Positions 1 to 63,539 of a stretch of 64,000 bases of DNA are shown one piece after another. Position numbers and translations under genes: made by a program. How positions within the stretch are numbered: position 1 is the stretch's first letter; each line of letters starts with the position of its first letter. This stretch comes from Eledone cirrhosa. Lineage: Eukaryota. The stretch is from contig OZ024750.1 of NCBI GenBank assembly GCA_964016885.1, positions 13,020,001 through 13,084,000 on the forward strand, written 5' to 3'. A model generated the notes under the pieces. That model did no database searches, was not told the DNA's origin, and saw only the letters and a program-made list of their open reading frames with translations.

Positions 1-125
1 TTTCTTTTTCAAGTGGTAAGCTGTGACCTTGGAACCACCATCAATCTTTGGTGCTTTCCATTGTAGAGTAACAAAGTCAGCACCAATTTTGTCATAAGTA
101 AACTTGATTGGTGGACCAGGAGGTT
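1..125 (-). CDS. Fn3 exon, partial (runs off window): [37 protein letters not shown]
   Basis: Acceptor AG at 126-127; phase 1; Fn3 motif; not in ORF track. Confidence 0.85.
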
Positions 126-15100: not shown

Positions 15101-18100
15101 TACAAACCTATCAGAGAGCAGCCAGTATTTTGACAGTTTGCTGTTGGAAAAAGTGTCACAACATGCAGCATCCCAGATCAGTGGGGGCTACCTCTGCAGA
15201 ATCGGAAGATTGTCATGCTGTCTGACCTTTTGTCATTCCTTCGGTCCAGCCCAGCTCGCTCAAGTTTGATATATTATGATAGAATTAGAAAGATTTCTTA
15301 ATTCCATCTCATTACAAATAATAAAATTCATTAAAGATCAAAGACAATCTAGTTTCAAAAAACTTAAGAAGTACCAATAATTATTTCTCCTTTTGGCACA
15401 AGGCCAGCAATTATCCCAGTACATTACTGGTACTTTATTTTATCGACTCCATAAGGATGAAAGGCAAAGTTAACCTCGGCGGGATTCGAACTCAGACCAT
15501 AAAGGGCCGTAACTCATAACACCATTAGTTAAGTAAAACCCCAATGTTGCTCATAATTATATACAAATAAAAATGCAATAGCTTTCGATATATAAAAACC
15601 ATAAAACCACTTCAAAATATTAACTTTCCTGTTATATAGTTATAATTTTTATCAACATTTTTTAGACTACTTTGTGTAAATATACATGTTTTATGTTAAA
15701 GACAGTATAAGCTTTTCAAACAAATTATAGCGCAATGAAAACATATGAACACACACTTATGAAAGTCAAATATTGCTGCATAAATTAAGAGTATCAGAAT
15801 CAATAAAAATATTGTAGATAAATAAAATTCTTAAGAATTAAATTCTTAAGCAGTAAACATTAATTATTTTATTTATATAAACAAATACAAATGCTATGTA
15901 GCCAATTTTTGTCACAAACAACAAATCATAATGTGAATAATATGTTGAATAATTACCTAGAACCTTCAATGTAATAGTAACATCAACCGATCCAGCAGAA
16001 TTCTCTAAACGGAGTTTATATTCACCAGAATCAGATCTTTTAACATTTTTGAAATTTATTTTGGTAGTATCTGTCTTAGTTTCAACCTGCATTCTTGATT
16101 TATCGAGTTCACTTTCATTGTGCAACCAAGTAGCTGTTGGTGAAGGAATACCAGAAAATGGTATTGACACGGATGTATTTTCACCAGCTTTAATACAAAT
16201 GACTTCCTTGTATTTATCTGCCAGAGTGTATTCAGGAGCCACTAAAAGTATAAATAATAACACATAGTTAATGATATAATATCATGAATATAGTAGAAAA
16301 GATAATGCAAATGTTTTTATATCAAATGCGGTTTCTAAAAATAATAGTAATAATAATTGTTTCTACTTTAGGCACAAAGCCAGCAATTTTGGGAGAGGGG
16401 AAAATCGATTAAACTGACCCTAGTGCATTGCTGGTGCTTTATTTTATCGACCCAGTAAGGATGAAAGGCAAAGCTAACCTCAGTGATTTGAACTCAGACT
16501 ACCAACATAATATTATTTCTTTTTTTAAATCTTTTTCTATTCATTTGTTTATTTATTTTTATTTATATATATAATAATGATATTATTAATCTATCAATTT
16601 TACCTTCAATAGATAGAGCAGCTTTTGTGGTTTGGTCTTTAACAGTCATACTATATTCAGCAACATCTTCAGGTTTCACACCCTTTATGATTAATTTGTG
16701 CACACAGCCTTCAACAATAATTTCATATTTCTTATTTGGTGTAATGGGTTTACCCTTGCAGAACCATTGAGCCTTCAGATTTGGACGGTTTATTTCACAT
16801 GTGAATGTAGTTTCACAAGGAGTCTTTTCAACCTTTTGATCTTCAAGTTCTTTGATAAACTTAACATCACCTTCTACAAAAGAAGAGAGAGTTTATTAGA
16901 AACTCATCAGATTTTATTTATTTTGCAAGCATTTATGAGAAAATATACCTTCAAGCAAATAGATTTTTTTCTATTATTATTTCATAATAATTATTTGCCC
17001 GATTTACATATACTGTGCACTAGACATATCCAATTCAACTCCAACATTAACAAAAAATAAAAAAACATGTATTCTGTATTTAAATTGTAAAATAAAGTTA
17101 AAGTAGAAATATAGTTATTGCCAATATCTTCATAGTATAGTTATTGCCAATATTATAGTATAGTTATTGGCAATATTATAGTATAGTTATTGTCAATATG
17201 ATAGTATGTAGTTATATAATGTCAATATTTAGTTATATAATGTAAATCTTTAACTATTCCAAATTTTAAATTCTATATTCAGACATCAAATATAATTATT
17301 AGGGTCTCTGCACTAGAAACAACATAATAAATATATTTAAAAGAACTATGGAAGTTTCAAAAATACTAAATTACAAACAACCCTTAACCTCTTTCTATTA
17401 CAAAATATTTCAACTAAGAAACAATCTAATTTTATTTGGTTCTGATTTAATCGTAAAAGATTAGATTATGTTATAGAAGAATTAAATCTAATTTCTAAAC
17501 CACAGTGAACCTACCTTTCACTTTTACAAAGGCTTTTGTGGATTTCTTCATTATTTTCAATTCATAGTTTGCTTCATCATCAAGCTGAGCTTTCTGAACT
17601 ATTAAAGTGTGTTTATTTTCTTCAACTGAGAAGTTAAAATGTGAGTCCTTTTCAATAACTTTGCCTGCTTTCATCCAGCAACCAGTAATGTTTGGTTTGG
17701 AGACCTCACAAACCAAGAGGATGTCATCATTTTCCATAACCTCTTGGTCTTTGAGAGGGCTCAAAAATTCTAATGGTTCTTCTGGAAAACAAAATAGCAT
17801 TTTGAATTTAGAAAATTAAATGGAAAGTTTGTATGAGTACTTAATCTAAACTGTAATAGGAATCTATAATTTTATTGCTTAAAAATAAAAATAAAAATAA
17901 AAATAATTAATATTTTTCTCAAACTTAGACTAATACATTTAGATGAAATAAATAAAGTCATGAGGATGGTGAATTTGGTGACAAACTAAATGACAGCATG
18001 AAAATAAAATAACTATGGCATAATCAAACTAATTCAAAATACAAATTGCTAGAAACTCATGCATAATTTTAACCTTAAAGAACAAATATATGTGTAACAG

Positions 18101-21100: not shown

Positions 21101-21389
21101 ATTGACAATATCTTTTCCATGGCCTTTCTTTCGTTGAATGTCATCTTTAACCGGATAGTCATTATTTTGCTGCCTATTATGGCCAACATCGTGACCATCT
21201 TCTGAAAAAGTAACAATTGATATTTGTGGCAAAATGATTTATATTTCTTTGTAAATTGTTGGACTTAGAAGACAAAACTGGTACGAAATAAACAAACAAA
21301 AAAACATTAAATGATCAACAAAACTTAGGATCAACATAATAAACTTGAACACCTAAAAGAAAACCAAACAAAACTATAAACTTTAACTA

Positions 21390-21420
<31 letters not shown>

Positions 21421-30372: not shown

Positions 30373-30414
<42 letters not shown>

Positions 30415-38569: not shown

Positions 38570-38604
<35 letters not shown>

Positions 38605-47600: not shown

Positions 47601-50600
47601 ACCAATTGCAAACTATCCTCGTTTTTGATGCTCTGAAATTATAATTAGGAATCATTAAATAGTTATCTAATTATAAACAATAAAATCTCAAACTTTACTA
47701 AAACGGGGAAAAAACAAGAAACTTCACAATTGAACATCAAATACTTACAGTTGGTTCAAGAACTTCAACAAATTCTGGTTTCTGTTGTTCTGGTTTCTTG
47801 TCTTTTGGCTTTTCTTCCTCTGGTTTCTTTTCCTTTGGTTTTTCTTCCTCAAGTGTTATAGTAGCTTCACACTCGACAGAACCAGCAGAGTTTGTAGCAA
47901 TACATTTATAAACACCAACTTCATTCTTAGAGAATTTGCTGGTTTTTAATATACATATTGTGCCATCTTGAGTCATTTTGGTAAGTGATGTTGTTTTGAT
48001 TTCTTTGTTGTCTTTAAACCATTTAATGGTAGGCTTAGGTTCACCAGTTACTTTACACTTCAGTTCAAGTCCTTCATTCAATTTAATTGTGGCTGATGTG
48101 AAGATCTCTTCAAATTTAGGTTTATCTTCCTTTGGTTTTTCTTCATCAAGTGTTATAGTAGCTTCACATTCGACAGATCCTGTAGAGTTTGTAGCAATAC
48201 ATTTATAAATACCAACATCATTCTTTGTAAATTTGTTGGTTTTTAGAGTACAAATTGTGCCATCTTGAGTAATTTTGGTAAGATATGTTGACTTGATTTC
48301 TTTGTTGTCTTTAAACCATTTAATGGTAGGCTTAGGTTCACCAGTTACTTTACACTTCAGTTCAAGTCCTTCATTCAATTTAATCGTGGCTGCTGTGAAG
48401 ATTTCTTCAAACTCTGGCTTCTTTTCTTTTGGTTTTTCATCATCAAGTGATATAGTAGCTTCACATTCAACAGATCCAGTAGAATCTGTGACAATGCACT
48501 TATAAGTACCAATATCATTCTTGGTGAATTTATTGGTCTTTAGAGTGCATATTGTACCTTCTTGAGTAATTTTGGTAACATAGGTTGACTTGATTTCTTT
48601 TCCATTTCTGAAGAAGAAAATATTATTCTCTTGTATAACACCCTATATGGCAATATGGAAATTTAATGTCTAAATTTCTATAATAAATATCAATAAATAT
48701 GAGTATTTTATATATAAACGATATATGGTATTTTTATGAATAAACATTTTGAAAGCCTTCAGCTATGAATTTTGGAAATTGATAACGTAATGCCATCTAG
48801 CAGATTCCAGTAAATGATAGTAAATAGATTCTAGAAACTGAAGAGCATAATATTTATTAATGTTGATATAAAAAGTGGTGTGCTCTTGCATGGAGATGCT
48901 ATAAAATAGAGTGTAAAGCTTTAAAAACAGAAAAAGAAGTTGCGAGGAATCAAACCCTGTATCTCTTAGATATTGGCTTGGTGTTTTGAACCATTAAGCC
49001 AAGGGTCCATGACAACTCTTTACTGTCTTAAATTAGGTAGTTAAATCACAGCTTTTAACTCTAAACAAACATGTATGTAGTTGATCTCATGGACTTTTAC
49101 TAAGTGCTGAGGGGATAAAGTTAATATAAAGAGTTGTGTACTCATGTGCAGATATATCTTTATTATTGATACATTAACATTAATATAATTTCAAATCAAA
49201 ATGGATATCAACATTTTTCTTGAATTTTTAAATGTGGAAAAGATATCTTAATAAGATACTTACTTGAACCATTTGACAGTTGACTTTGGTTCACCTGTGA
49301 ATTTGCATTTCAATTCCATGCCCTCGCCAATTTTGAAAGACTAAACATAAAAAAAACATATATATATATATATATATATAATAAATATAATCACCACAAA
49401 AAAAAACATACAATACTTAAGGAATTTTAAAATGCTTTCAATCATACTTACAGCTGAGTTAAATACCTCTTCAAATGTTGGTTTCTTCTTAATTTCTGTA
49501 AATGTGTAAAGTGTATAAGTGTGAGAAAGCAATTGAAGAGTTGAGATTGAAATCAAAATCTTATTACACATCATAAAACAGAGCAAAATAAAAGTTATTA
49601 CTTTTAAATTTAAAATAATAATTGTTACAATATTTCGCACAAGGCCAACAATCTTGGGGGAGGGGAAAGTCAATTTAATCGACCCCAGTGCATTACTGGT
49701 GCTTTATTTTATCGACCCAAAGCTAACCTCGACAGGATTTGAATGCAGAACATAATAAAGGGACGTAACTATATGCTGCAAAGCATATTGCTCAATGCTC
49801 TACCGATTCTGCCAATTCACTGCTCTTTGTAAAATAATAATGAAATATATTAAATTAAAAGGATGCCTTTAGAAATGAAACAGAAGTAAAAGCTACTGTT
49901 GCACACTATAGACTCATTTAAAATGTTTCAAACAAAGTTGATTACATACCTGTAACAGTAACTTTACAAGAAGTTGAAGAAGTACCAACACTGTTTGTTG
50001 CTTTACATGTATATTCAGCAGTGTCTTCTTTTGTAACTTTACGGACTATCATTTTGTGAGATGTTTCAGAACTTTCAATTATGAAATGTTCAGATGATTT
50101 AATTTGTACACCATTTTTGTACCTATAAAAAGAGTTAATTAAATGATTCACTTTAGTGTAGGTTACCAAACATATTGTGAACAAATAAAGAATGATTAAC
50201 CCTTTAGCATTTAAGCCAGCCATATCCAGCCAGAATTCTCTCACCTCTTTCTGTTTAAACCAGCTGTAACCAGCCCCTCATACTGATGTTAAGGTATTTT
50301 TCTCAAAATAAATAACATCAAACTTTCATAGATTCGATATTATATGAGATAATTATGTAAAATAAAAGCCTTTACCACAAAAATACAATAGTAGATATAT
50401 TGAGTAATATAAAGGCTAAAGGGTTAAAGAATAAAAACAAAAATATAATTCTAAAAGTTTAATAGGAAAAGAACAAACCATGTAATTTCAGGACTTGGTG
50501 CTCCCTCAGTGATGACAGTAAATTCAACATCGGTTCCTTCATTTGGTTTTTGATCATCCAATTTCTTGGTGAACGAAGGAGCGACTGTATATTCCACGCT

Positions 50601-51962
50601 AAGAGCTTGTATTTCACTTTCCTAATCAAAATAATTGATAACAGTTGTTTAAATTGCATAAAAAGGAATGTATAAACAACATTTTTTTTTTTCTGTTGAA
50701 GAAATAAAATATGGTAAAATATATTTGTTGATCTAATGATAAAATTATGAAATAAAATAAGTCATTAAAATGTTTATTACAATTCAGTATTATTTTTTAT
50801 TTTTAAATAATTGTAGAGATTTATATATTGATTTATATAACAATAAACATATATGAATATTTTAAAGTCATGTCTTTTTTCTTCTAAAGATACATTGAAA
50901 TATGAAGAAATGTGATAATATTAATATTTTTCATCAAACCTGAAAATAATGACTATAAAATACATAATATGAGATATTAAAGTTTAGTAGCAACTGGAAA
51001 ATATGTCTCTTTATTTAAGATGTCATCAAGTATTGTTTAAAAACTGATTTCTGCGGAATAAAAGGGTTTATGAACATTAGTTTAAAAATATAAATTATTT
51101 AATGTGAAAATTTGTATTAGCAATATTAGAAATATTATTTAATTTTAAATAGATGAATTTACTGATTAAAATGTTATTTTAAAAATATTCTCTTTATATG
51201 ATTGTTATTATTTCAAATAAGGAAATTAAAAGCAACCATGTGAATCCCTAATATACTATTTCATAAATCTATCTAAGGTTCAATGATCAGAAAGTATTTT
51301 AGATTTTATTTGAATTATTATTACAAACAACTATTAGTACTATCTCTTATATTATTGTGAAGTTTCAAAAGATTCTATACATCCACTTAACTAGTTAGAC
51401 ATAGCAATGAAGTTTGCCTCATATTTCACCTTTCCCTGAATTGTGGGAGATGACAAAATTATCCATACTTTGTTTTATTAGTTATGCCTGAAGGAAGTGT
51501 CTATGCCATCTTCTAGTCCCCCAATCCATCGATGACCAGTCAGGTTAATTTTGTTTATGTTCCTCTTGAATAGTTACAAGTTGACTTTGCTCATCTTAAC
51601 CAGTCAAACATGAAGTAGCAGTTGTACAATGTAGTTAGTAAGTTTATAACAATTACATTAAGATCCTTTGTTTAACTACACAAATTAACCCCAATAACAG
51701 AATCTAATTCTCCCCCTCACAGGAATTTTGTAAGTTATCATAACTTTGATAGGTTTCGGCTAGTATTGGCCCAGGCCATGTCTAACTTAATAGCACCACT
51801 TGGTGCTAGAAAACAACAAAATGTAATGGAGATTAATTTAAAATAACTGAATAAATAAACCTGATTCTAGAAATAACCAGACGATGAAATGGTGTTAATA
51901 CTGAAATTTTGTAAACAACCTGTGCAAATGATGATGATAAAAATGTTTTTGAAAAGAGCATG

Positions 51963-52156: not shown

Positions 52157-55100
52157 GTAAGAAGAAGAAGAAAAAGAAGAAGAAAATAAGGAAAAGAAGA
52201 AAAAGAAGAAAAAGAAGAAAAAGAAGAAAAAGAAGAAAAAGAAGAAAAAGAAGAAAAAGAAGAAAAAGAAGAAAAATGAAGAAAAAGAAAAAGAAGAAAA
52301 AGAAGAAAAAGAAAAAGAAGAAAAAGAAGAAAAAGAAAAAGAAGAAAAAGAAAAAGAAGAAAAAGAAGAAAAGGAAAAAGAAGAAAAAGAAAAAGAAAAA
52401 GAAGAAAAGGAAAAAGAAGAAAAAGAAGAAAAAGAAAAGGAAGAAAAAGAAGAAAAAGAAGAAAAAGAAGAAAAAGAGAAAAAAGAGAAAAAGAAAAAGA
52501 AGAAAAAGAAAAAGAAGAAAAAGAAGTAGTAGTAGTAGTAATGTAAAGAGCTACAGCATTATCTTGAAAATGAAGTGATGATCAAAAATGTAATCAACTG
52601 CAAAAGATAGAAAGTCGTGAGCTTTATATTAGTAATATTAGAAAATATCTTCTCGTTCAAGTGAACAGAGTTTCAGCTTTGTTTAATATTGGATAAAGTG
52701 TTTTCCTAACAACATATGAACGACCTGTATAATGAGACTATAATTTGTCTTAGTATTAACCTCATCTTTTTAACAAATGAAACATCACTTTACAATATTT
52801 ACACCTCGTACACTACATTGTGATTGGTTTGACCATTTGATCAGCATTGGGATGTCTTATTCATGGATCTATAGATGAGCCATGACTGAATTAGAAACTC
52901 TATAGATGTTAATAGACAGTCTACAGATGTTGATAGACAGTCTACAGATGTAGACAGCAAGGAGATGTTGATAGACAGTCTATAGATATTGACAGCAAGG
53001 AGATGTTGATAGTCTATAGATATTGACAGCAAGGAGATGTTGATAGTCTATAGATGTTGACAGCAAGGAGATGTTGCTAGACACAGTCTACAGATGTTGA
53101 CAGTGTATAGATGTTGCTAGACACAGTCTACAGATGTTGACAGCGTGTAGATGTTGCTAGACACAGTCTACAGATGTTGACAGTGTGTAGATGTTGATAG
53201 ACACAGTCTACAGATGTTGACAGCGTGTAGATGTTGCTAGACACAGTCTACAGATGTTGACAGTGTGTAGATGTTGATAGACACAGTCTACAGATGTTGA
53301 CAGTGTATAGATGTTGATAGACACAGTCTACAGATGTTGACAGTGTGTAGATGTTGATAGACACAGTCTACAGATGTTGACAGTGTGTAAATGTTGATAG
53401 ATACAGTCTACAGATGTTGACAGTGTGTAGATGTTGCTAGACACAGTCTACAGATGTTGACAGCAAGGAGATGTTGCTAGACAGTGTGTAGATGTTGATA
53501 TAGTCTATAGACATTGACACAGTTTATAGATGTTGATAGACACATTCTATTTTAAAGCATTTAGTGAGGGAGGGCAGTGCACATAACCTTTTTCAGGGAC
53601 TTCTAAGTCTAATGGGAAGGAGGAAGATATCTTTAAATGGATGAACTGGCCTGAATATGTGTAACAGAATGGACTACACTAAAGGCACCCAAGAACCAAG
53701 TGATGGTGTTAAACCAGGCAATAAATTAAGCCTGCACCCCTGTCCAAGAAGGTCATAGCAGGATTTTAACAAATACAACAGGGCATCCAATCTAAAGATC
53801 TAATGAATTAAGCATAAACTAGTACTATATTTATCACCCCAGAAGGATGAAAGACACCTAAAAAATAATGGTTCCTTATCAGAATCTAGTCAAGGATGAT
53901 ATACACATCCAGGAATAAGACATCTAATGATCTGATGCCAAAGGTCAAATGAATCGAAACTTAGTGTAGGGATGTAAATATTGAAAAATAAAGCTTCAAT
54001 GTTAAAGATGCAGTTTATTGTTTCTAAAAATGATCTTATTCCCAATTTATCTCAAATTTATAGTAATCTATTAACTACGATAAAGTGTGGGGTTAAGTTT
54101 ATAGAAACGTGTATAAGTTTATTAAGAATAAGATTGACTCACAAATTAAAAAAAAAGTCTATATTAGAAAAAGATTTAATGGAAAGCTGACCCATTGTGA
54201 TTATGTAGTCATGATAATAGTAAACAAGGAAATGTCCGAACAGCAGATGAATTTACAACTCTGATACCCAAAATATAAGTTAAATTTAATCTTGATTTAG
54301 TTATACAGATATACATATAAAATTATTTTAGCAAGGGAGATAATCTATACAGGAATAAGCCTACAACGAATTTTAAATTTTAGTGAAGGTTTCATTTTCA
54401 TTCTGCTTTGCCTTTCATTTGATGAACATCTCAACAACCTAAATATAAAAGATATATATATATGTGTGTACAAGTATATGTATTTAAGATGTCAATGATA
54501 ACGAAGGCTTTTAAAACATGATACAAATATGCTAAAATAGAACAAATATTAATTATAACAATTGTAATAATAAATATTATTATCATTAATATAGATAACA
54601 GATTTACCTCAGGCAAAGTAAACGTGTCTTCAACTGTCACATCTTCTTTCTTTATATCTGAGCTATCAATACCAAATGAAACTGATAATTCTACATCTTT
54701 TTCCCTATCATCTGGCAGAGATAGAGATAAATCTGCACTAACATCTTCAGTTTTTGGTTCACCAAATACAAAGTCTGCTTCCACATCTTCAACTTCAGTT
54801 TTCTTTGGTTTCATCTCGAAGACAAAATCAGTTGAAACATCCTCGACCTCCTTAGCTTGTTTACTTTCTTCAGGTATGACAAAAGCAGCATCAACAGTAT
54901 CAGGAACCTTTTCTTCTTCTATGTGAATGGTTGCTTCAGTATCACGTGGCTTTTCTTCTTCTATGACAATAGTTGCTTCAATATCACGTGGTTTTTCTTC
55001 TTCTATGACAATAGTTGCTTCAGTATCACGTGGTTTTTCTTCTTCTATGACAATAGTTGCTTCAATATCACGTGGTTTTTCTTCTTCTATGACAATAGTT

Positions 55101-58100
55101 GCTTCAGTATCACGTGGTTTTTCTTCTTCTATGACAATAGTTGCTTCAGTATCACGTGGTTTTTCTTCTTCTATGACAATAGTTGCTTCAATATCACGTG
55201 GTTTTTCTTCTTCTATGACAATAGTTGCTTCAGTATCACGTGGTTTTTCTTCTTCTATGACAATAGTTGCTTCAGTATCAAGGGGTTTCTCTTTAGTAGT
55301 ACTATCAAGTACTAAACTAAATTCAGCATCTTCAACTTGTTCAGTTGTGTCTTCAAGAGAGAAACTGATATCATGGGCTTCTGAGGTTGTTTTCTTTTCA
55401 TCCTCTATCTCGAAGCTAGCATCAACAGAGGTATCCTCTTCAGCAAGGCTAAATTCAGCTTCAACATCTTCAGGAGTTTGTTTTTTAGATATATCTGTTT
55501 TGTCCTCTAATATTTCTACTGTAGTCATTTCTGCTACTTGTGTTTTGTATTTATCAGTAACTGATTCAGCAGCAGTCATTGTATCCTTCTGACTCTTACT
55601 GATTTCTGAAACTATATCTTGAGTGTCACTGCCAGACATGGTATCTGTTTGAATAACAGTTATATCAGATTCGGAAATATTAAGAGGCAGTTTTTGTTTA
55701 TCATCCATAACAGTTACTTTTTCAAATGAAATATCAGAAATATCAGACAAACCATTCTCTGATACTTGTTCTTGTACAAATCCAACCATAGATTTGGGGA
55801 TATCAGTAAATGTTGCTTCACTTTTCTCTGGTTTCTTCTCAGAATCAACAATGCTGACTTTCTCAACACTGACATCTGAAATATCGGAGACAATATTGGC
55901 TGTGATATCTTCATGAGCGACTCCAACCATAGATTTGGGGATATCAGTAAATGTAGCTTCACTTTTCTCTGGTTTCTTCTCAGAATCAACAATGCTGACT
56001 TTCTCAACACTGACATCAGAAATATCGGAGACGATATTGGCTGTGATATCTTCATGAGCGACTCCAACCATAGATTTGGGGACATCAGTAAATGTTGCTT
56101 CAGTTTTCTCTGGTTTCTTTTCAGAATCAACAACGTGGATTGTTTCAAAGCTGATATCTGAAATATCGGACACGATATTGGCTGTGATATCTTCATGAGC
56201 GACTCCAACCATATATTTGGGGATATCAGTAAATGTTGCTTCACTTTTCTCTGGTTTCTTTTCAGAATCAACAATGCTGACTTTCTCAACACTGACATCT
56301 GTAATATCAGAGACGATATTGGCTGTGATATCTTCATGAGCGACTCCAACCATATATTTGGGGATATCAGTAAATGTTGCTTCAGTTTTCTCTGGTTTCT
56401 TTTCAGAATCAACAACGTGGATTGTTTCAAAGCTGATATCTGAAATATCGGACACGATATTGGCTGTGATATCTTCATGAGCGACTCCAACCATAGATTT
56501 GGGGATATCAGTAAATGTTGCTTCACTTTTCTCTGGTTTCTTTCCAGAATCAACAATGCTGACTTTCTCAACACTGACATCTGTAATATCAGAGACGATA
56601 TTGGCTGTGATATCTTCATGAGCGACTCCAACCATATATTTGGGGATATCAGTAAATGTAGCTTCACTTTTCTCTGGTTTCTTCTCAGAATCAACAACAC
56701 TGATGGTTTCAACACTGACATCAGAAATATTAGCAAGACCATTTTCTGTTAAATGTTCTTGTACAAATCCAACCATTGATTTAGGGATATCAGTAAATGT
56801 AGCTTCAGTTTTCTCTGGTTTCTTTTCAGAGTCAACAATGTGGATTGTTTCAAAACCGACATCAGTAATATCGGACACGATATTTTCTGTGATATCTTCA
56901 TGAGCGACTCCAACCATAGATTTGGGGATATCAGTAAATGTAGCTTCACTTTTCTCTGGTTTCTTCTCAGAATCAACAATGCTGACTTTCTCAACACTGA
57001 CATCTGAGATATCGGAGACAATATTGGCTGTGATATCTTCATGAGCGACTCCAACCATATATTTGGGGATATCAGTAAATGTAGCTTCACTTTTCTCTGG
57101 TTTCTTCTCAGAATCAACAACACTGATGGTTTCAACACTGACATCAGAAATATTAGCAAGACCATTTTCTGTTAAATGTTCTTGTACAAATCCAACCATT
57201 GATTTAGGGATATCAGTAAATGTTGCTTCAGTTTTCTCTGGTTTCTTTTCAGAGTCAACAACGTGGATTGTTTCAAAGCTGATATCTGTAATATCAGACA
57301 CGATATTGGCTGTGATATCTTCATGAGCGACTCCAACCATAGATTTGGGGATATCGGTAAATGTTGCTTCACTTTTTTCTGGTTTCTTCTCAGAATCAAC
57401 AATGCTGACTTTCTCAACACTGACATCTGTAATATCAGAGACGATATTGGCTGTGATATCTTCATGAGCGACTCCAACCATATATTTGGGGATATCAGTA
57501 AATGTAGCTTCACTTTTCTCTGGTTTCTTCTCAGAATCAACAACACTGATGGTTTCAACACTGACATCAGAAATATTAGCAAGACCATTTTCTGTTAAAT
57601 GTTCTTGTACAAATCCAACCATAGATTTGGGGATATCAGTAAATGTAGCTTCAGTTTTCTCTGGTTTCTTTTCAGAATCAACAATGTGGATTTTTTCAAA
57701 ACTGACATCAGAAATATCAGAGACGATATTTTCTGTGATATCTTCATGAGCCACTCCAACCATATATTTGGGGATATCAGTAAATGTAGCTTCACTTTTC
57801 TCTGGTTTCTTCTCAGAATCAACAACACTGATGGTTTCTACATTGATATCAGAAATATTAGCAAGACCATTTTCTGTTAAATGTTCTTGTACAAATCCAA
57901 CCATTGATTTAGGGATATCGGTAAATATTGCTTCAGTTTTCTCTGGTTTCTTTTCAGAGTCAACAATGCTGATGGTTTCTACATTGACATCAGAAATATC
58001 TGTTGTAATATTTTCTGTTAATTGATAAGTACTTGTATCAACTTTGGTTGGGAGGGTTTCAGATGTACTTTCTTTCTTCTCATCCATAGAAACGGTCATG

Positions 58101-60117
58101 GATACGACTTCTTTTGTCATTTCAGGAGATATTTCTATGATCTCTTCTTCTTTCTGAGGCACCTCAGTTTCCGGCTTTAATAAATGTGATCCGACATTAA
58201 AGTTCAAGTGTTTAATTGGTTGTTATTTTAAAATGCAAATCATCGTGTGGGCAGCTGGTCATGCATGCATATAGAAGCAGCAATTGTCACAGACACATTA
58301 CATGTGTACAGATAGGATGAACACACATATATAAGACAAAACAACATACTGCTACATAGACGCTAATAATAAATATAAACTATAAATATCAACATAATAA
58401 GCAGCATGCTGTACAATGAAACATAGTTTTGACAATGTTTATGTTAAAACTATATAATATTTGCAAATATCATATAAATGTTATATGTTCATTTTGTTTA
58501 AAATATAATTTAATATTTGATATAGAACTGACTAAAACCACTCCTGGTTAAATACAAAACTGATTGATTTAATGTTTATATTTACCTAAAAACATTCCAT
58601 TATAATTTCCTGTAAGAATGTTAAGTTGTCTTCCAAACACCAACTTAATAATTAGAATATTAGTTATTTTCTAAATTCATAAAAATGTTGATTATTTGAA
58701 AATCATAAGTATTGTATTTCATTAGAAATATAGTAACAAATAGCTAGATAAACTCTCCAGATTTTCTGATAAAAACTATTTCAAGTTATAATGCTAAATA
58801 AAATACTTACGAATAGTCTAATTAAAGAAAGCTATAATTACTTTAGTCCTGGAGAGGAGATGGGCTTCACCATATTTTAAAAGATGCCTTAGATATGCCA
58901 TATGGCAATACAGTACCCTGACGAGTCCCTTAGGAGTTACAGATCTAAACAAACATAATTAATTTACAAAGCTAGAATATCAGGATTATATTATATATTT
59001 AATAGATTTAATTATTTTCAACAAAATATTTCATAGTATTAAAATATATAAAGGTAAGTATCGCACTATATAACTTACAAACTTGAAATAAATCATAGTT
59101 TTAACATAATTACAAATAATTTATGCATTTGACATTACGTAAAAAAAATTGTCAAAACTCTAGAAAACGATTTACAAACAACAAAAGCTGTGAAACAAAT
59201 CAACATATTTTAAAAGTGCCAAAAAAGCAGGAAGGAAAAAGGTATCTATAACTAGAGCTAATAAGCCAAACAATACGCGTAAACATAAAATCAGTAAAAG
59301 CTGTGCAAATCTGTTTAAAATAACTAAAAATATGAGCCATCCATTTAATATTTTCTCTGACATTCAACATTAGAAGTTTATATTTATGTATATATATATA
59401 TATATATTTATGTGTGTGTATATATATATATATATATATCGCAAGTAAGTATGTTTTGAAACAGTGAGCAGGTTTGAAATTAGAAAATAGAATAGCTTTC
59501 ACCGTATTTTTGACTAAAGGAATTTTAGCCTCAGATAAATGGAAAAAGATGAGTAGTACGTCAATACTCATCTTTTTCCATTTATCTGAGGGTTCTAAAC
59601 CCCATTATCAGGCTAAAATTCCTTTAGTCAAAAATACGGTGAAAGCTATTCTATTTTATATATATATATATTTATGTGTGTGTATATATATATATATAAT
59701 ATAATATTTATATATATCATATAATATATTAATATAATATAGTATATAAATATAAAATATGTTAATATAATGTGTGTGCGTGTGTGTGTGTGTTTGTGTA
59801 CAAAGTGAGAGAGGGGCATATATAAGTATATACAATATAGAGATATATGTATATATTTTTTTAAATCCTCAATGTGGGTATTTTAAGATGTGACATGCCA
59901 CAACTATCTCAGTAACTATGAGAGAATGCAAAGTATTAGTATTTCAGGATCTTTATCCATCATTAGTGATGTTACTCAATTAATAATGAGATAAAGAAAG
60001 CTAATAGCATATATATACTTAGGTATACAGCTAGGCACCAGTGATGTCACAACTCAGTTCTATAGCTGATTAAACTGAAGCAATATGAAATAAAGTGTGT
60101 TTCTCAAGGACAAACAC

Positions 60118-60321: not shown

Positions 60322-60396
<75 letters not shown>

Positions 60397-60916: not shown

Positions 60917-60964
<48 letters not shown>

Positions 60965-63539
60965 ATTAATAGATAGATACATAGATAGACAAATATATAC
61001 GTATGTGTATATATATATAGGGGATATATATATATGTTATTGATAGATAGATAGACAAATATATATGTATGTGCATATGTATATATATATACATATATAT
61101 AGGGGATATATATATATTATTGATAGATAGATAGACAAATATATACGTATGTGCATATGTATATATATATATATACATATATATAGGGGATATATATATA
61201 TATATATAGGGGATATATATATATTATTGATAGATAGATAGACAAATATATACGTATGTGCATATGTATATATATATGTATATATATATGTATATATATG
61301 TATATATATATAATCACTTGATTAAATATTAAAACTAAAGAGTAGAAGGACATCATTTAAGGAAGCTGATAATTTTCCCTACAAATTATTCCCTATAAAT
61401 CCGCAGTAAATATATATTACAATGCTTAAACAGAGAAAAACGTCATTGACAGTCAATATATTTACATACAAGATGGCACCAAATTATTTTTAATTTCATG
61501 CTCAACAATACAATAGCCAAAAAGCAGGTTGGACAATACAACAAATATACATGAAAATACAACAAATTGACTTGTACTGGAATAGACATTTAAAGCAATT
61601 ATTATAAACAGTTACATATAAAATAACAATTACATGTGCAAATAAAAAATAACTGTGGGACAAAAAATTCATTAAACACACAATACAAAGCAACACTGAA
61701 AATAAAACTACAGCTACAAACATATAAAGCCATTCAAGCTCTGCCCATTAAATATAACACAAATAATATACAATTTTAACATGTGGAGAGTAATGTATTT
61801 TACTTGAAAATATACAATAAAGCTTTTATTTATAATTATCAAATTAACTGTCTCCACGAATTAATTTTATAAATAATATAATTTGTAAAATTTCAATTAA
61901 AATATAAAAAACCATTTCATAGGTTACAGTTTTATACAACTTATACTTTAGTTATTTATATAAAGTGTTGGCCAATGGCAACTTATGCTTCCAAGCTGTG
62001 AAAAATGAACCCACAGATTCTATATATTTGCAGGTATCTTATACAGACATTGCCTTAGAGCCATGATAAGAATATCTTAACATAACCTCATTAAAAATAA
62101 TGAGGCTATAAAAAGGCCAATTTCTGAGATACCATCATCATAAGATAGTAGATGATGCTAGACCAGATGTAATTTGACTATACATAAAATGCCAAATAAG
62201 TTTTAAATATATTCCATAAATTAAACAGAATTTCCTATTTATTTATATCCATGTACAAAATGGTCCATTTATCTTAAAACATGAACATTTGAAATTAATT
62301 TATATTTTTCTTAATAACCTAACTTCAATAGTTTAATAGTTTCTGTAAATTGAAAATATAGACACTAGAAAATTCAATCTTACCTCAAGTACGTGTACAG
62401 TTTCGAAAGAATCAACAACTGTCTTTGTTTGTTTAATTGTCTCAACTTCTTTCCTTGCCTTCAAGTAAATAAAAAAGAAATATTTTATGAAGTAAGATAA
62501 ATATTCAAATTTCTCAAAACTGTTTTTTACATAAATTACAATTAATGAAAAAAATAATCTTCTTATAAAGTAGCTCAATCAAAAAACAAATAATTATCTC
62601 AATATTAATTTTTTATAAGTGTTAAGATACATAATAAAATATATCTATACTATCTATTTTCATTTAATATGAAAAAGGATTCAATTCTCTTTAAGCAAAA
62701 ATAGGAAGAAATTCTGCTTTACCTTGAAACCTCGGTAGGCAGCTTGTATTGTGACAGCAGCCTGTTCTGCAATGTCCTCTTCTTCAGATATATCAGCAAA
62801 TTCTAAAATTAAAAAATTATGAACAAGATGCAATGAAATTTTCAAACAATTATTTTCTCAAAATAAATTATTCCTATTTCATTTGAAATAAAATCTCTCT
62901 ATATTAAAGAATATATTAAGTAGAAATAGCTATTTTTTGTTTATCATAAATACATATTAATTCTAAGATGTAAAATGAACCCACAGATTCTATATAATTG
63001 CAGGTATCTTATACAGACATTGCCTTAGAGCCATGATTAGACCATTATTAGACTATATTATGTAGTCAATGATACAGCGATACTTCTATTTCTATTCTAA
63101 AACTTTGCCTGCCTCATTCCAAATATATTTCCTTTACAACCTTTAATGTTTACAAGATTTTATTAGGCTCCTATATTTAAGAGTGCCCAGCAAAGTACAA
63201 TGTGTAATGCAAGCAATAATAAGCAATGTAGACTAAATTACCTAACACATCAAGGACACATGATGATACAATTTCTCCATAGTCATTTGCAGCTTTAACG
63301 GTGTATGTTCCTGCATCTTCTGGAAATACTTCAGGAATCATTAAAGTAGATTCATTAGCACCAGGAATTACATGATACATTTCTCCATCTTCGATGAGCA
63401 TGTTGTTATAATACCATGTAATATTAGGAATTGGTTGACCTTTGTATTTACATACAAACGATATAGATCCACCTTCTTCTACTGTTTGATCAATTAGAGA
63501 AATTTCAAAAATAGGAGCCATATCACCAGGTTGTTTGAT
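1..63539 (-). CDS. Giant titin/twitchin/obscurin-like Ig-Fn3 muscle protein gene (internal portion, 64 exons, both ends outside window)
   Basis: Minus-strand exons bounded by GT-AG with compatible phases translate to I-set Ig (W...DxGxYxCxAxNxxG) and titin-type Fn3 (WxxPxxDGGSxIxxYxxE...YxFRVxAxNxxG) domains. Confidence 0.95.
286..591 (-). CDS. Fn3 exon (306 nt, phase 1-1)
   Basis: ORF 269..622 trimmed to AG/GTAAG; VPSAPIGPL...WKKPKDDGG...[12 protein letters not shown]. Confidence 0.9.
1039..1338 (-). CDS. Fn3 exon (300 nt)
   Basis: ORF 1028..1363; ttttccag acceptor, gtaagt donor. Confidence 0.9.
1456..1755 (-). CDS. Fn3 exon (300 nt)
   Basis: [32 protein letters not shown]; AG/GTAAGT. Confidence 0.9.
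2140..2445 (-). CDS. Fn3 exon (306 nt)
   Basis: ORF 2117..2482 trimmed to splice sites. Confidence 0.9.
4146..4349. mobile_element. MITE with ~25-bp terminal inverted repeats (Tc1/mariner-like)
   Basis: ttatatctgtataaatacagagtgt at left matches reverse complement of acattctgtattgatacagatataa at right (2 mismatches). Confidence 0.55.
4584..4889 (-). CDS. Fn3 exon (306 nt): [50 protein letters not shown]
   Basis: Translated by hand; AG/GTAATT; missed by ORF track. Confidence 0.9.
5046..5333 (-). CDS. Ig exon (288 nt), Fn3-adjacent type
   Basis: ORF 4981..5343; [13 protein letters not shown]...[11 protein letters not shown]. Confidence 0.9.
5754..5926 (-). CDS. Ig C-half exon (173 nt, phase 2-1)
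   Basis: [46 protein letters not shown]. Confidence 0.88.
6275..6386 (-). CDS. Ig N-half exon (112 nt, phase 1-2)
   Basis: [37 protein letters not shown]; Trp codon split TG|G. Confidence 0.88.
6723..7028 (-). CDS. Fn3 exon (306 nt)
   Basis: ORF 6694..7038 trimmed to splice sites. Confidence 0.9.
7352..7654 (-). CDS. Fn3 exon (303 nt)
   Basis: ORF 7335..7775 trimmed; ttttccag/gtaagt. Confidence 0.9.
7734..7920 (-). mobile_element. tRNA-derived SINE, family A, full length
   Basis: Pol III A/B-box-like TGGCAGTATCG / GAGTTCAAATCCC on minus strand; 17-bp TSD ttacatataaaaataat (7717-7733, 7921-7937); about 12 copies in window. Confidence 0.9.
8413..8715 (-). CDS. Fn3 exon (303 nt)
   Basis: [32 protein letters not shown]. 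Confidence 0.9.
9363..9650 (-). CDS. Ig exon (288 nt)
   Basis: [11 protein letters not shown]...[19 protein letters not shown]...[11 protein letters not shown]. Confidence 0.9.
9820..9992 (-). CDS. Ig C-half exon (173 nt)
   Basis: [46 protein letters not shown]. Confidence 0.88.
10117..10231 (-). CDS. Ig N-half exon (115 nt)
   Basis: [39 protein letters not shown]. Confidence 0.88.
10543..10826. mobile_element. Tc1/mariner-pogo-type MITE interrupted by a 5'-truncated family A SINE (10624-10731)
   Basis: TA-ccgtatttcccggc ... gccaggaaacatgg-TA imperfect TIRs; SINE flanked by TSD atttgaaaacaaataat. Confidence 0.7.
11006..11311 (-). CDS. Fn3 exon (306 nt)
   Basis: ORF 10986..11279 extended to acceptor. 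Confidence 0.9.
11757..12059 (-). CDS. Fn3 exon (303 nt)
   Basis: [40 protein letters not shown]...[12 protein letters not shown]. Confidence 0.9.
12222..12406 (+). mobile_element. Family A SINE, full length
   Basis: A/B boxes on plus strand; 13-bp TSD attattatcatca. Confidence 0.9.
13220..13790. mobile_element. Degenerate family B SINE fragments in both orientations
   Basis: gttaggaagggcat (plus) and atgctcttcctaataccaaccaca (minus) match family B copies. Confidence 0.5.
14208..14504 (-). CDS. Fn3 exon (297 nt), first Fn3 of the gene within the window
   Basis: [32 protein letters not shown]. Confidence 0.9.
14736..14915. repeat. Imperfect (GT/GA)n microsatellite
   Basis: gtgtgagtgtatgaga units. 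Confidence 0.85.
15380..15515 (-). mobile_element. Family A SINE, 5'-truncated
   Basis: Matches 7734-7920. Confidence 0.85.
15957..16241 (-). CDS. Ig exon (285 nt), MyBP-C C5 / twitchin core type
   Basis: [38 protein letters not shown]...[11 protein letters not shown]. Confidence 0.9.
16357..16498 (-). mobile_element. Family A SINE, long subfamily with extra ~30-bp G-rich segment
   Basis: Extra ttgggagaggggaaaatcgattaaact also present at 29550 and 49650. Confidence 0.8.
16604..16873 (-). CDS. Short Ig exon (270 nt)
   Basis: [37 protein letters not shown]...DVAEYSMTV; missed by ORF track. Confidence 0.88.
17108..17245. repeat. Degenerate ~24-bp minisatellite
   Basis: tatagttattgccaatat units repeated about 5-6 times. 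Confidence 0.7.
17515..17781 (-). CDS. Short Ig exon (267 nt)
   Basis: [31 protein letters not shown]. Confidence 0.9.
18586..18981 (+). mobile_element. Head-to-tail tandem pair of family A SINEs with three copies of the TSD
   Basis: gttattatttcctg at 18586, 18777 and 18968; period 191 bp. Confidence 0.9.
19504..21201 (-). CDS. Large non-globular G/D/R/S-rich repeat exon (~566 aa), probable cassette or alternative terminal exon; donor uncertain
   Basis: 591-codon ORF in very AT-rich DNA; strong phase-1 acceptor ttactttttcag at 21202; weak phase-1 donor gtatta at 19503 keeps frame; 57-bp tandem repeats. Confidence 0.7.
22570..23042 (+). mobile_element. Internally deleted mariner element
   Basis: TIRs tatgttcaataagtaatgagaaattttcaggagag / ctctcctgatattttctcattatttattgaacata; interior relic YAIKVCV...EAYEM...RWFKRFSKG resembles mariner transposase HTH. 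Confidence 0.75.
23293..23559 (-). CDS. Short Ig exon (267 nt)
   Basis: [31 protein letters not shown]. Confidence 0.9.
24237..24503 (-). CDS. Short Ig exon (267 nt)
   Basis: [27 protein letters not shown]. Confidence 0.9.
24934..25200 (-). CDS. Short Ig exon (267 nt)
   Basis: [27 protein letters not shown]. Confidence 0.9.
25555..25824 (-). CDS. Short Ig exon (270 nt)
   Basis: [27 protein letters not shown]. Confidence 0.9.
26032..26088 (-). mobile_element. Heavily 5'-truncated family B SINE tail with TSD ctatctca
   Basis: (cat)n-tttacgtctgctttttccctgcttgcaagggtggga near-identical to 38288 and 42710 copies. Confidence 0.8.
27006..27284 (-). CDS. Divergent short Ig exon (279 nt)
   Basis: [40 protein letters not shown]...[10 protein letters not shown]; phase 1-1. 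Confidence 0.82.
27520..27710 (-). mobile_element. Family B SINE 3' part, diverged
   Basis: catcatttaacatcc...gatgcccttcttaacaccaaccaca. Confidence 0.7.
28200..28440 (-). mobile_element. Probable Helitron Pif1-helicase C-terminal relic
   Basis: Minus-strand fragments [10 protein letters not shown] and [12 protein letters not shown] resemble Helitron motifs FAMTINKSQG and GLDLxxxxFSHG; stops and frameshifts present. Confidence 0.5.
29141..29520. repeat. 17-bp minisatellite (taatgactatatgtata), about 22 copies
   Basis: Direct tandem units abutting a SINE tail. Confidence 0.9.
29521..29729 (-). mobile_element. Family A SINE, long subfamily
   Basis: Matches 16357 and 49621 copies. Confidence 0.85.
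29981..30163 (-). mobile_element. Family A SINE, full length
   Basis: TSD taatttaat; A/B boxes. Confidence 0.9.
30743..31012 (-). CDS. Short Ig exon (270 nt)
   Basis: [40 protein letters not shown]. Confidence 0.9.
31924..32190 (-). CDS. Short Ig exon (267 nt)
   Basis: [35 protein letters not shown]. Confidence 0.9.
32410..32668 (-). CDS. Short Ig exon (259 nt, phase 0-1)
   Basis: [25 protein letters not shown]. Confidence 0.88.
33124..33321 (-). CDS. Charged K/E/D linker exon (198 nt, phase 0-0)
   Basis: ORF 33067..33321 trimmed at gtgaga donor. Confidence 0.82.
33692..33857 (-). CDS. Charged E-rich linker exon (166 nt, phase 2-0)
   Basis: [55 protein letters not shown]; needed for phase continuity. 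Confidence 0.82.
34054..34245 (-). mobile_element. Family B-related SINE 3' part
   Basis: (cat)n tail, ggatgcccttcctaacaccaaccaca. Confidence 0.7.
34490..34775 (-). CDS. Ig exon with WSKGKW motif followed by DWKAALKHR (MyBP-C C1 / IGFN1-like)
   Basis: [34 protein letters not shown]...[14 protein letters not shown]; 286 nt, phase 1-2. Confidence 0.88.
34917..35143 (-). CDS. Ig C-half plus start of next Ig (227 nt)
   Basis: ORF 34876..35151 trimmed. Confidence 0.85.
35310..35421 (-). CDS. Ig N-half exon (112 nt)
   Basis: [37 protein letters not shown]. Confidence 0.88.
35865..36037 (-). CDS. Ig C-half exon (173 nt)
   Basis: [26 protein letters not shown]...[14 protein letters not shown]. 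Confidence 0.88.
36576..36690 (-). CDS. Ig N-half exon (115 nt)
   Basis: [39 protein letters not shown]. Confidence 0.88.
37338..37637 (-). CDS. Ig exon (300 nt)
   Basis: [40 protein letters not shown]; missed by ORF track. Confidence 0.88.
37962..38128 (-). CDS. Ig repeat 11, part c (167 nt)
   Basis: [24 protein letters not shown]...[14 protein letters not shown]. Confidence 0.88.
38288..38570 (-). mobile_element. Family B SINE (tRNA head truncated, CORE-like middle, (ATG)n tail)
   Basis: Near-identical to 42710-43027. Confidence 0.85.
38620..38970 (-). mobile_element. RTE-clade LINE relic, AP-endonuclease C-terminus
   Basis: [36 protein letters not shown] matches the RTE/Rex3-type SxIDF...VKRGAxLSTDHHLV motif. 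Confidence 0.75.
39046..39122 (-). CDS. Ig repeat 11, part b (77 nt)
   Basis: [26 protein letters not shown]. Confidence 0.88.
39390..39466 (-). CDS. Linker plus Ig repeat 11, part a (77 nt)
   Basis: [26 protein letters not shown]; phase 1-0. Confidence 0.82.
39675..40492 (-). CDS. Fused exon (818 nt): Ig repeat 8 part c, EEKKP linker, intronless Ig repeats 9 and 10
   Basis: ORF 39667..40200 extends in frame to acceptor at 40493. Confidence 0.9.
40790..40990 (+). mobile_element. Family B-related SINE 3' part, plus orientation
   Basis: aaaagcacccagc...gttggcattacgaagggcatccag...catgctaacatggaaaa. Confidence 0.65.
41005..41081 (-). CDS. Ig repeat 8, part b (77 nt)
   Basis: [26 protein letters not shown]. 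Confidence 0.88.
41519..41556 (-). CDS. Ig repeat 8, part a (38 nt)
   Basis: [13 protein letters not shown]; phase 1-0. Confidence 0.85.
42090..42330 (+). mobile_element. RTE/Rex3-type LINE 3' end relic
   Basis: [22 protein letters not shown]...[14 protein letters not shown] resembles the RTE ORF C-terminus. Confidence 0.65.
42399..42565 (-). CDS. Ig repeat 7, part c (167 nt)
   Basis: [24 protein letters not shown]...[16 protein letters not shown]. Confidence 0.88.
42710..43027 (-). mobile_element. Family B SINE, near full length (tRNA head, CORE-like domain, RTE-like (ATG)n tail)
   Basis: Minus strand tggttagagcattggcc...gagttcaattct head, ccttgagcaagacacttta CORE-like, ends gacgtaaaatgatgatg. 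Confidence 0.85.
43111..43313. mobile_element. piggyBac-type MITE
   Basis: TTAA ends with cctttag / aaaggg TIRs; second copy at 50196-50427. Confidence 0.75.
43557..43633 (-). CDS. Ig repeat 7, part b (77 nt)
   Basis: [26 protein letters not shown]. Confidence 0.88.
43910..43947 (-). CDS. Ig repeat 7, part a (38 nt)
   Basis: [13 protein letters not shown]. Confidence 0.85.
44743..44909 (-). CDS. Ig repeat 6, part c (167 nt)
   Basis: ORF 44738..44932 trimmed. Confidence 0.88.
45025..45156 (+). mobile_element. RTE LINE relic (post-RT region)
   Basis: [25 protein letters not shown] resembles the RTE motif RLRWFGHV. Confidence 0.6.
45343..45419 (-). CDS. Ig repeat 6, part b (77 nt)
   Basis: [26 protein letters not shown]. 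Confidence 0.88.
45559..45630 (-). mobile_element. Family A SINE 3' fragment
   Basis: ttgtttctactttaggcacaaggcc...ttatcgacccc. Confidence 0.75.
45804..45841 (-). CDS. Ig repeat 6, part a (38 nt)
   Basis: [13 protein letters not shown]. Confidence 0.85.
45979..46145 (-). CDS. Ig repeat 5, part c (167 nt)
   Basis: ORF 45962..46222 trimmed. Confidence 0.88.
46322..46398 (-). CDS. Ig repeat 5, part b (77 nt)
   Basis: [26 protein letters not shown]. Confidence 0.88.
46496..46533 (-). CDS. Ig repeat 5, part a (38 nt)
   Basis: [13 protein letters not shown]. Confidence 0.85.
46801..46967 (-). CDS. Ig repeat 4, part c (167 nt)
   Basis: ORF 46793..46981 trimmed. Confidence 0.88.
47150..47325 (+). 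mobile_element. RTE LINE relic, start of RT domain
   Basis: [43 protein letters not shown] matches the P.FKKGD...CSNYRGISL motif. Confidence 0.75.
47556..47632 (-). CDS. Ig repeat 4, part b (77 nt)
   Basis: [26 protein letters not shown]. Confidence 0.88.
47749..48607 (-). CDS. Fused exon (859 nt): Ig repeat 1 part c, intronless Ig repeats 2 and 3, KPE linker, Ig 4 part a
   Basis: ORF 47737..48378 extends in frame to acceptor at 48608; internal 297-bp period. Confidence 0.9.
49264..49340 (-). CDS. Ig repeat 1, part b (77 nt)
   Basis: [26 protein letters not shown]. Confidence 0.88.
49452..49495 (-). CDS. Ig repeat 1, part a (44 nt)
   Basis: [15 protein letters not shown]. Confidence 0.85.
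49623..49829 (-). mobile_element. Family A SINE, long subfamily
   Basis: TSD taaaataataat; small internal deletion. Confidence 0.82.
49950..50122 (-). CDS. Ig C-half exon (173 nt)
   Basis: [13 protein letters not shown]...[14 protein letters not shown]. Confidence 0.88.
50196..50427. mobile_element. piggyBac-type MITE
   Basis: TTAA-ccctttagc ... gctaaaggg-TTAA. Confidence 0.82.
50479..50621 (-). CDS. Ig N-half exon (143 nt, phase 0-2)
   Basis: [48 protein letters not shown]. Confidence 0.85.
51965..52152. repeat. (TA)n and (TG)n microsatellites
   Basis: Direct observation. Confidence 0.95.
52159..52525. repeat. ~370-bp polypurine (AAG/AAAAAG) tract
   Basis: Almost exclusively A/G on plus strand. 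Confidence 0.95.
52898..53545. repeat. Minisatellite, 40-bp unit built from ~19-21-bp subunits
   Basis: acacagtctacagatgttgacagtgtgtagatgttgatag with period 40 (53081, 53121, 53161...). Confidence 0.9.
54608..58174 (-). CDS. Giant acidic repeat exon (3,567 nt, 1,189 aa, phase 0-0); putative elastic spacer
   Basis: 1,258-codon ORF; donor GAG|gtaaat at 54607; most plausible in-frame acceptor ttattaaag at 58175; phases match flanking exons. Confidence 0.85.
54909..55290 (-). repeat. Coding 42-bp tandem repeat x9 ([14 protein letters not shown])
   Basis: Visible in DNA and protein. Confidence 0.92.
55715..58020 (-). repeat. Coding 141-bp (47-aa) tandem repeat x16 with higher-order structure
   Basis: [47 protein letters not shown]; 423- and 282-bp periodicities. 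Confidence 0.92.
59484..59657. repeat. Near-perfect nested inverted repeat (fold-back)
   Basis: 59484-59531 pairs with 59610-59657; 59529-59555 pairs with 59565-59591. Confidence 0.92.
60430..60555 (+). mobile_element. RTE LINE 3' end fragment embedded in (TA)/(CA) microsatellite
   Basis: [30 protein letters not shown] matches the RTE C-terminal GxRxRGRP...MxDRxxWR motif. Confidence 0.7.
60900..61312. repeat. Compound microsatellite array, about 4 units of ~75 bp (GATA/TA/GGGG)
   Basis: tattgatagatagatagacaaatatatacgtatgtgcatatg...tagggga repeated. Confidence 0.85.
62384..62458 (-). CDS. 75-nt exon, C-half of IQ motif ([25 protein letters not shown])
   Basis: AG/GTAAG; phase 0-0. Confidence 0.82.
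62723..62802 (-). CDS. 80-nt exon, N-half of IQ motif ([27 protein letters not shown])
   Basis: ttttag acceptor, gtaaag donor; phase 1-0 bridges flanking exons; not in ORF track. Confidence 0.85.
63242..63539 (-). CDS. Ig exon (298 nt), titin/kettin I-band type
   Basis: [36 protein letters not shown]...[19 protein letters not shown]. Confidence 0.9.

Follow-up and report, generated by a model that had tools for sequence, protein, structure and literature searches.

What kind of muscle protein is encoded by a locus in which an IQ motif, two giant repetitive exons, arrays of immunoglobulin (Ig) domains and a region of Ig domains and domains of fibronectin type III (Fn3) appear to share one reading frame? 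The question is raised by a stretch of 64,000 nucleotides from the octopod Eledone cirrhosa (assembly GCA_964016885.1, contig OZ024750.1, positions 13,020,001 to 13,084,000), referred to below as the window. The original prediction regarded the product as a mosaic that combines an obscurin-like IQ motif, titin-like springs and a core resembling MyBP-C and IGFN1, possibly a connecting filament of molluscs or cephalopods with Ca/calmodulin input and a length tuned by splicing.

The window has a GC content of 30%, and its introns are AT-rich and full of microsatellites. On the minus strand 64 exons, with splice sites placed inside coding frames, can be followed from position 63539 down to position 1; they have AG/GT ends and fitting phases, and spliced together they give 18,513 nt or 6,171 aa, free of stops and open at both ends. 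The frame comprises 32 Ig, 12 Fn3, one IQ motif and the two giant exons. Its upstream part runs Ig, IQ, a 1,189-aa acidic exon, Ig, an array of 11 Ig copies, three Ig and an Ig with the motif WSKGKW; its downstream part runs through a 137-aa linker, eight short Ig, a 566-aa exon and two short Ig to the series L-FFF-LL-FFF-LL-FFFFFF, in which L denotes a long Ig and F an Fn3 domain. The features, all on the minus strand, are as follows:

63242..63539, first exon in the window, a long I-set Ig (Pfam I-set, E 1e-19)
62802-62723 + 62458-62384, IQ motif (IQxxxRGxxxR) in two small exons (Pfam IQ)
54608..58174, 1,189-aa acidic repeat exon (16 x 47-aa and 9 x 14-aa repeats)
49950..50621, long Ig split over two exons (homology, splice phases)
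37962..49495, 11 tandem copies of one Ig (Cys columns, copy alignment)
34917..37637, three conserved long Ig plus the first part of the N2A-like Ig (best matches in register, P0003 and Lingula, 38-50%)
34490..34775, WSKGKW Ig with DWKAALK motif, a titin I80-like and twitchin-like module (alignment, tree)
33124..33857, remainder of the 137-aa E/K-rich linker, without tri-helix bundle (Pfam)
23293..32668, short Ig 1-8, a single exon each (Pfam; the first best matches titin I83)
27006..27284, short Ig 4, a divergent one, probably left out of X4 contig 9
19504..21201, frame of 566 aa rich in D/S/G/R (phases 1-1; weakest donor; passed over by one contig)
15957..17781, short Ig 9-10 plus the long Ig preceding the first Fn3 (spliced in X4 contig 9)
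1..14504, Fn3x3-Igx2-Fn3x3-Igx2-Fn3x6, the final Fn3 cut by the window end (Pfam, relatives)

Pfam identified I-set in the Ig exons tested and fn3 in the Fn3 exons tested, the scan having taken in 29 frames, fewer than all 64 exons. None of 2,907 tblastn HSPs, obtained across the whole window with eight relatives and the model itself as queries, lies beyond the modelled exons; seven intronic frames contain no Pfam family, and Rfam gave no match to the window. The first exon begins at an acceptor and the gene must therefore extend upstream of 63539; the sole homolog found for its Ig, and a weak lead, is an insect Sallimus-type titin (34%; one among 56 candidates of 176-2,000 aa). Judged from its sequence, the window is the middle part of a real giant titin-family muscle gene that runs past both window ends, with its Z-disc and kinase ends outside, and 1..14504 is the predicted beginning of its thick-filament region.

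Read contigs of two runs, X4 and X1, neither on record as RNA, were placed on positions 14950-29100 only. The X1 contigs over this interval are unspliced. X4 contig 9 (4,384 nt) falls into seven pieces that lie at modelled exons, occupy consecutive record positions and contain no mismatches, so that six joins among seven exons, four of them carrying Igs of the short Ig 1-8 set, are borne out by a single contig from one run. The contig behaves like spliced RNA, though formally a retrocopy is possible. The same contig links 23293 straight to 17781 (record positions 3560/3561) and thereby passes over the 566-aa exon. Short Ig 4 is probably skipped as well, because no piece is listed for 27284-27006 and a 2-nt overhang at 25826-25825 agrees with the exon whose end is 30743 and not with the one whose end is 27006. 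In the bins 19670-21085 X4 shows zero cover; this by itself proves nothing, and it is the bridging contig from which skipping is deduced. With the 566-aa exon and short Ig 4 removed the frame is still open, at 5,512 aa, and in view of this contig the 6,171-aa frame is taken as a maximum, not observed as an isoform. For 39600-48700 the X4 word share (0.26) is close to the exonic share (0.268) and was not counted as transcript evidence, and no run among those sharing sequence with this interval is listed as RNA. All the parts that the original prediction enumerates are present, among them the 11 Cys-rich Ig, the ten short Ig and the region of Ig and Fn3. Its single continuous frame of about 6,170 aa holds insofar as the 64 exons splice without a stop, and fails insofar as the one informative contig omits the 566-aa exon, an omission that in turn bears out the proposal that length can be changed by splicing.

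The introns carry several repeats. A 193-nt family has five copies (7723-7915, 10613-10805, 15372-15564, 29542-29734 and 29970-30162) and a 191-nt doublet lies at 18586-18981; their copies within 14950-29100 have very high contig depth in X4 and X1, so that both are high-copy elements, likely of SINE type. Near-identical copies of another element, with the same spurious reading frame, lie at 38408-38656 and 42825-43178, and 38751-38969 (minus strand) resembles by eye a decayed LINE endonuclease fragment in which Pfam finds no family. Minisatellites occupy 29135-29521 (17 nt x 23) and 52925-53483 (40 nt x 14), and an AAG-rich tract 52159-52526.

The affiliation of the gene is best approached through its domain order. 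A search with the WSKGKW exon returned six proteins, including a Mya 'TITIN-like' protein; the comparison set combines a profile-free search with the latter (best 150 of 7,586) and a search among 3,755-11,949-aa proteins (75 matches), and relatives were annotated with profiles made from the window's own domains. It includes the database titins of Elysia (GFS00827.1), Pinctada (KAK3083483.1), Lingula (XP_023933258.1) and Owenia (CAH1802732.1). Lingula titin is unbroken in this part, its eight long Ig (with WSKGKW) being followed by 20 short Ig and these by the Fn3 region; Elysia titin consists of 12 short Ig, L-FFF-LL-FFF-LL, 41 Fn3, LL-F, a kinase and an Ig; the Pinctada Fn3 run numbers 43, and Owenia and Macrostomum carry variants of the order. 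From the last long Ig onwards, the best match falls at the same position for 11 of the first 12 Ig/Fn3 domains in Elysia and likewise in Pinctada, and for 11/16 of all domains tested in each, the misses being one in the second Fn3 triplet and another four within the repetitive Fn3 run. Controls in their best register reach 3 (insect twitchin), 2 (amphioxus titin) and 1 (a crinoid twitchin-like protein) of 16. Further upstream 7/7 domains are in register with P0003 and 6/7 with Lingula, and from the Ig before WSKGKW through FFF-LL-FFF-LL-F identity to lophotrochozoan titins is 38-65%. In a tree of the F-L-L-F-F module each of the two window modules groups with the corresponding modules of Elysia and Pinctada (100/98 and 97/94), and twitchins form a clade of their own (100/99) without the lophotrochozoan connectin/titin family. 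A period of three domains marks the Fn3 run, clearly so in Pinctada and more weakly in Elysia. No single relative spans the whole window, and continuity is pieced together from overlapping gene models in which mis-joining is possible. In P0192, P0195, P0232 and P0252 (annelid, brachiopod, flatworm) a block of the type (short Ig-long Ig-FFF-LL-FFF) recurs several times ahead of the Fn3 run and forms a super-repeat that resembles neither titin's nor twitchin's.

A family of this kind has been recognised by its kinase. In PMC12198301 (Hanashima et al. 2025) the connectin kinases Os_CON (XP_036371388.1), Cg_CON (XP_034304307.1), Ct_CON and Ef_CON are kept apart from twitchins, and its supplement records a separate twitchin gene in molluscs. 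By eye, in the supplementary alignment of that paper, the Elysia kinase is like Os_CON and Cg_CON_A1 and unlike Os_twitchin; in our kinase tree Elysia, amphioxus titin, twitchin and MLCK meet at one open fork. On the strength of domain order, in-register matches and this kinase likeness, the window gene is assigned to lophotrochozoan connectin/titin, a gene common to molluscs, brachiopods and annelids. The available text of PMC12198301 uses the kinase alone and gives no mollusc connectin architecture ('mollus' has 0 matches). The family thus has a name already, both in databases and in a single kinase tree, and its mollusc architecture was found undescribed in a library short of most subscription journals: a description gap rather than a new system. 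Earlier work on the polychaete connectin-like 1200K/4000K proteins and on squid connectin may describe part of this architecture. The original prediction was right that the product is a giant sarcomeric protein that is none of twitchin, Sallimus, obscurin and MyBP-C. Its uniqueness as a mosaic does not survive the register comparison, the same order being found in brachiopod, annelid, flatworm, gastropod and bivalve proteins.

The WSKGKW Ig deserves closer inspection. The motif WxKGKW occurs in MyBP-C C1 and in IGFN1. In a PDB search, with IGFN1 outside the comparison, the WSKGKW exon aligned best on MyBP-C at residues 1201-1262, the C-terminal Ig and not C1. Its identity is 65% to P0003 and 52% to Lingula, and in a fish titin fragment 35% to the I80-type Ig, the best match within that protein. 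An Ig followed by D(F/W)xxxLK is found in insect, nematode, hemichordate and echinoderm twitchins and in the I80-type Ig of the fish fragment; the WSKGKW Ig with its DWK..LK linker is best read as an old module common to titin N2A and twitchin and, being common to titin, is not diagnostic of twitchin. What had been taken for a MyBP-C/IGFN1-like core is really this module, and the tri-helix bundle known from UN2A and MyBP-C (Pfam THB) is absent from 4/4 family proteins and from both linker exons of the window; the fish fragment has a weak THB match (E 2e-4) under the cut-off. The one-residue insert that distinguishes WxKGKW is present in lophotrochozoan connectin/titin and the fish I80-type Ig and absent from 10/10 twitchin-type rows of the alignment. 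For the short Ig that comes first after the linker, the best single-domain PDB match is titin I83 (50 bits versus 39 for the next non-N2A domain), in a database without a twitchin equivalent; the best PDB match of the second is not N2A. In a tree of I80-like Igs the window Ig groups with twitchin Igs (96/90) and the fish I80 lies outside, and a topology that unites it with I80 is not rejected by the AU test (p 0.39). The N2A layout is described in PMC8042602, where N2A fragments do not bind actin, and we therefore claim no actin binding for the N2A-like region of the window.

The 11 array copies are mutually 43-88% identical. Cysteines occupy the titin B/F/G triad positions in 10/11 copies and one further Cys is present in 11/11; the Cys columns line up with titin I65-I70 (PDB 3B43), and in titin the triad allows disulfide isomerisation (PMC5766482). 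The counterpart of this Ig is single in P0003, P0143 and Lingula, and the array is a lineage-specific expansion of one Ig. Most copies consist of three small exons (about 38, 77 and 167 nt). Two exons, 39675-40492 and 47749-48607, each hold two whole intron-less copies whose DNA is 81-91% alike, a pattern that points to intron loss followed by tandem duplication.

Of the giant exons, the 1,189-aa exon has a net charge of -170 and consists to 39% of P/E/V/K. With only 4% proline it is, strictly speaking, not PEVK; it is a predicted extensible spring. Its phases (0-0) make it skippable, its acceptor is the second-weakest of 64, and its one match in the ESM Atlas (0.80) is at chance level. The relative P0003 likewise has an acidic stretch before its next Ig, the one matching 50621-49950. 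The 566-aa frame exceeds chance, the longest stop-free run in 300 shuffles being 126 aa; its donor is the weakest of 63, it contains no Pfam family, and it is predicted to be a cassette or alternative terminal exon.

The IQ motif scores 25.1 bits against a Pfam cut-off of 20.3 in the 62684-62857 frame, and in the 6,171-aa frame it follows one long Ig and precedes the acidic repeat. The join of its exons to the rest of the chain is predicted from the phases, and exon 62458-62384 ends in a strong donor. On comparison the sequence is close to obscurin IQs and also to an echinoderm MLCK IQ. The label obscurin-like stands as a resemblance; the window frames scanned contain no obscurin-specific domain (RhoGEF, PH, SH3). 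Neither the IQ nor the first Ig has a counterpart in the fetched family members, all of which begin further downstream. The starfish MLCK model P0164 has an extra N-terminal kinase followed by IQ and Ig; that kinase groups with MLCK (99/95) and not with the Elysia kinase.

We give a probability of roughly 0.8 to the reading that the window belongs to a lophotrochozoan connectin/titin gene whose product would link the thin-filament side elastically to the thick filament, a predicted spring and a predicted myosin-binding Fn3 half being joined in one chain. Beyond position 1, relatives lead us to expect some 35 more Fn3, with a period of three domains, and then a C-terminal kinase. The acidic exon, the linker and the tandem Ig would extend under load as an I-band spring, the length of which would be set by the cassette exons; the Cys-triad array could stiffen upon oxidation, the IQ motif would bind calmodulin, and the Ig/Fn3 part would bind the thick filament as anchor of the spring. 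One Ig or Fn3 domain is roughly 4 nm long, and about 60 domains would cover about 240 nm of thick filament. Since this is all they would cover, the filament end would be gripped and the M-line not reached. Titin Fn3 domains are reported to bind myosin (PMC10862085), and according to Schueder et al. (PMC9886278) projectin has a 250-nm span and the role of titin is split between two proteins in flies and worms.

Three other readings have to be weighed against this one. That the exons of the first Ig and the IQ, whether joined by the 1,189-aa exon or not, form a separate upstream gene or transcript and connectin proper begins lower is unlikely, though it would agree with several observations: no read or homolog joins 62384 to 58174, the acceptor of the acidic exon is nearly the weakest, fetched family members lack the IQ, and titin loci are reported with adjacent related genes and internal promoters (PMC12198301). 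The exact fit of the phases and the strong donor of exon 62458-62384 speak for one gene, homology gave no further exon between 62384 and 58174, and the acidic stretch of P0003 stands directly before the Ig matching 50621-49950. It is very improbable that the product is a mosaic assembled in cephalopods, with the IQ taken from obscurin, the springs from titin and the core from MyBP-C/IGFN1. Besides the close likeness of the IQ to obscurin IQs, several short Igs score best to obscurin domains and cardiac MyBP-C comes first by summed score in a PDB search with the family profile; short Igs are, however, common to all these families, the WSKGKW exon matches MyBP-C best in its C-terminal Ig and not in C1, the tri-helix bundle is absent, and the in-register matches largely refute this idea.

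A divergent twitchin/projectin paralog, that is a thick-filament regulator with an enlarged N-terminus and not a titin, is quite improbable too, even though twitchins share the order Ig, D(F/W)xxxLK, short Ig, long Ig and Fn3 and attract the I80-like Ig in its tree. Fn3 scores to twitchin slightly exceed those to chordate titin in 9/12 window domains and 48/52 Elysia domains, and the identity of the Elysia kinase to twitchin kinases of arthropods is 54-59%, against 39-42% to the amphioxus titin kinase. Chordate Fn3 also seemed nearer to twitchin, an artefact of P0191, which is titin-type by score; without P0191 they are about equidistant from the lophotrochozoan family and twitchin. Against a twitchin paralog stand the separate twitchin that molluscs own (supplement of PMC12198301), the exclusive twitchin clade in the module tree, the insert that twitchin-type rows lack, the absence of a (Fn-Fn-Ig)n core and the 10-20 short Ig in place of four.

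The wider meaning of the gene concerns the history of titin, for which PMC12198301 leaves three scenarios: that protostomes split it, that chordates fused it, or that it was lost and replaced by convergence. A protostome gene that unites spring, N2A-type Ig and long Fn3 chain next to a separate twitchin bears on this question, and it is plausible that a protostome has retained titin unsplit in addition to twitchin. A fuller account is tentative, and we would put the odds somewhat against it: lophotrochozoans would keep the ancestral bilaterian titin unsplit beside twitchin, with spring, N2A-type Ig, tandem Ig, a run of 41-43 Fn3 whose three-domain period tracks myosin crowns, and kinase; Sallimus would be the same gene cut short at the Fn3 start; N2A would predate chordates; and octopods would have acquired, for tuning the passive stiffness of obliquely striated muscle, an 11-Ig array sensitive to redox state, a site for calmodulin and giant cassette exons. 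The window gene is also a candidate passive-stiffness filament of this cephalopod muscle, with splice and redox handles.

Compared with its lophotrochozoan relatives, the window has 11 copies where they have one Ig, and 10 short Ig where Lingula has 20 and Elysia at least 12. The 566-aa exon sets it apart from them, three Igs of P0003 are absent from it, and its IQ motif and 47-aa repeats have no counterpart in the relatives as far as these, being partial, extend. With MyBP-C/IGFN1 and obscurin it shares short N-variable Igs, and its IQ is like that of obscurin; all three differ in Fn3 order and size, the tri-helix bundle of MyBP-C and IGFN1 is lacking, and in obscurin/UNC-89 the IQ comes after a long short-Ig array and is followed by SH3-RhoGEF-PH, whereas that of the window follows one long Ig.

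The likeness to twitchin/projectin lies in the Ig, D(F/W)xxxLK linker, short Ig, long Ig and Fn3 succession and in the Ig-Ig-Fn3-kinase end of Elysia. UNC-22, bent and mollusc twitchin nevertheless have other N-terminal Igs, no WxKGKW and only four short Ig before their (Fn-Fn-Ig)n core, an order absent from the window frame. Sallimus, D-titin and I-connectin share the C-terminal series short Ig-long Ig-F-LL-FFF; in two Sallimus-type proteins 11/15 and 7/9 domains score best to lophotrochozoan connectin/titin, and the module tree places Sallimus weakly on that family's side (66/88), a grouping with twitchin/titin not being rejected (AU p 0.136). Sallimus differs by its SH3, by lacking the WxKGKW Ig and linker, and by ending after about five Fn3 without a kinase, whereas the window has no such end, nor an SH3 in the frames scanned, and its chain goes on with LL-F6.

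The super-repeats of 7 and 11 domains that define chordate titin (PMC10862085) are absent; the window and its relatives have FFF-LL-FFF-LL and then an Fn3-only run (41-43 in relatives), so that the six Fn3 at the window end are not the Ig-(Fn3)6 described there for titin's I/A junction. The A-band part, judged by relatives, is far shorter than that of chordate titin, the window lacks both the tri-helix bundle and a PEVK block after the I83-like Ig, and the Elysia kinase retains HxDxKPxN, a motif that a pattern search did not find in amphioxus titin. In common with chordate titin, the window gene has spring-type and Ig/Fn3 regions within one chain, Igs with the Cys B/F/G triad, large skippable exons, and a WxKGKW Ig followed by a charged insert and a short Ig that best matches I83 in the PDB.
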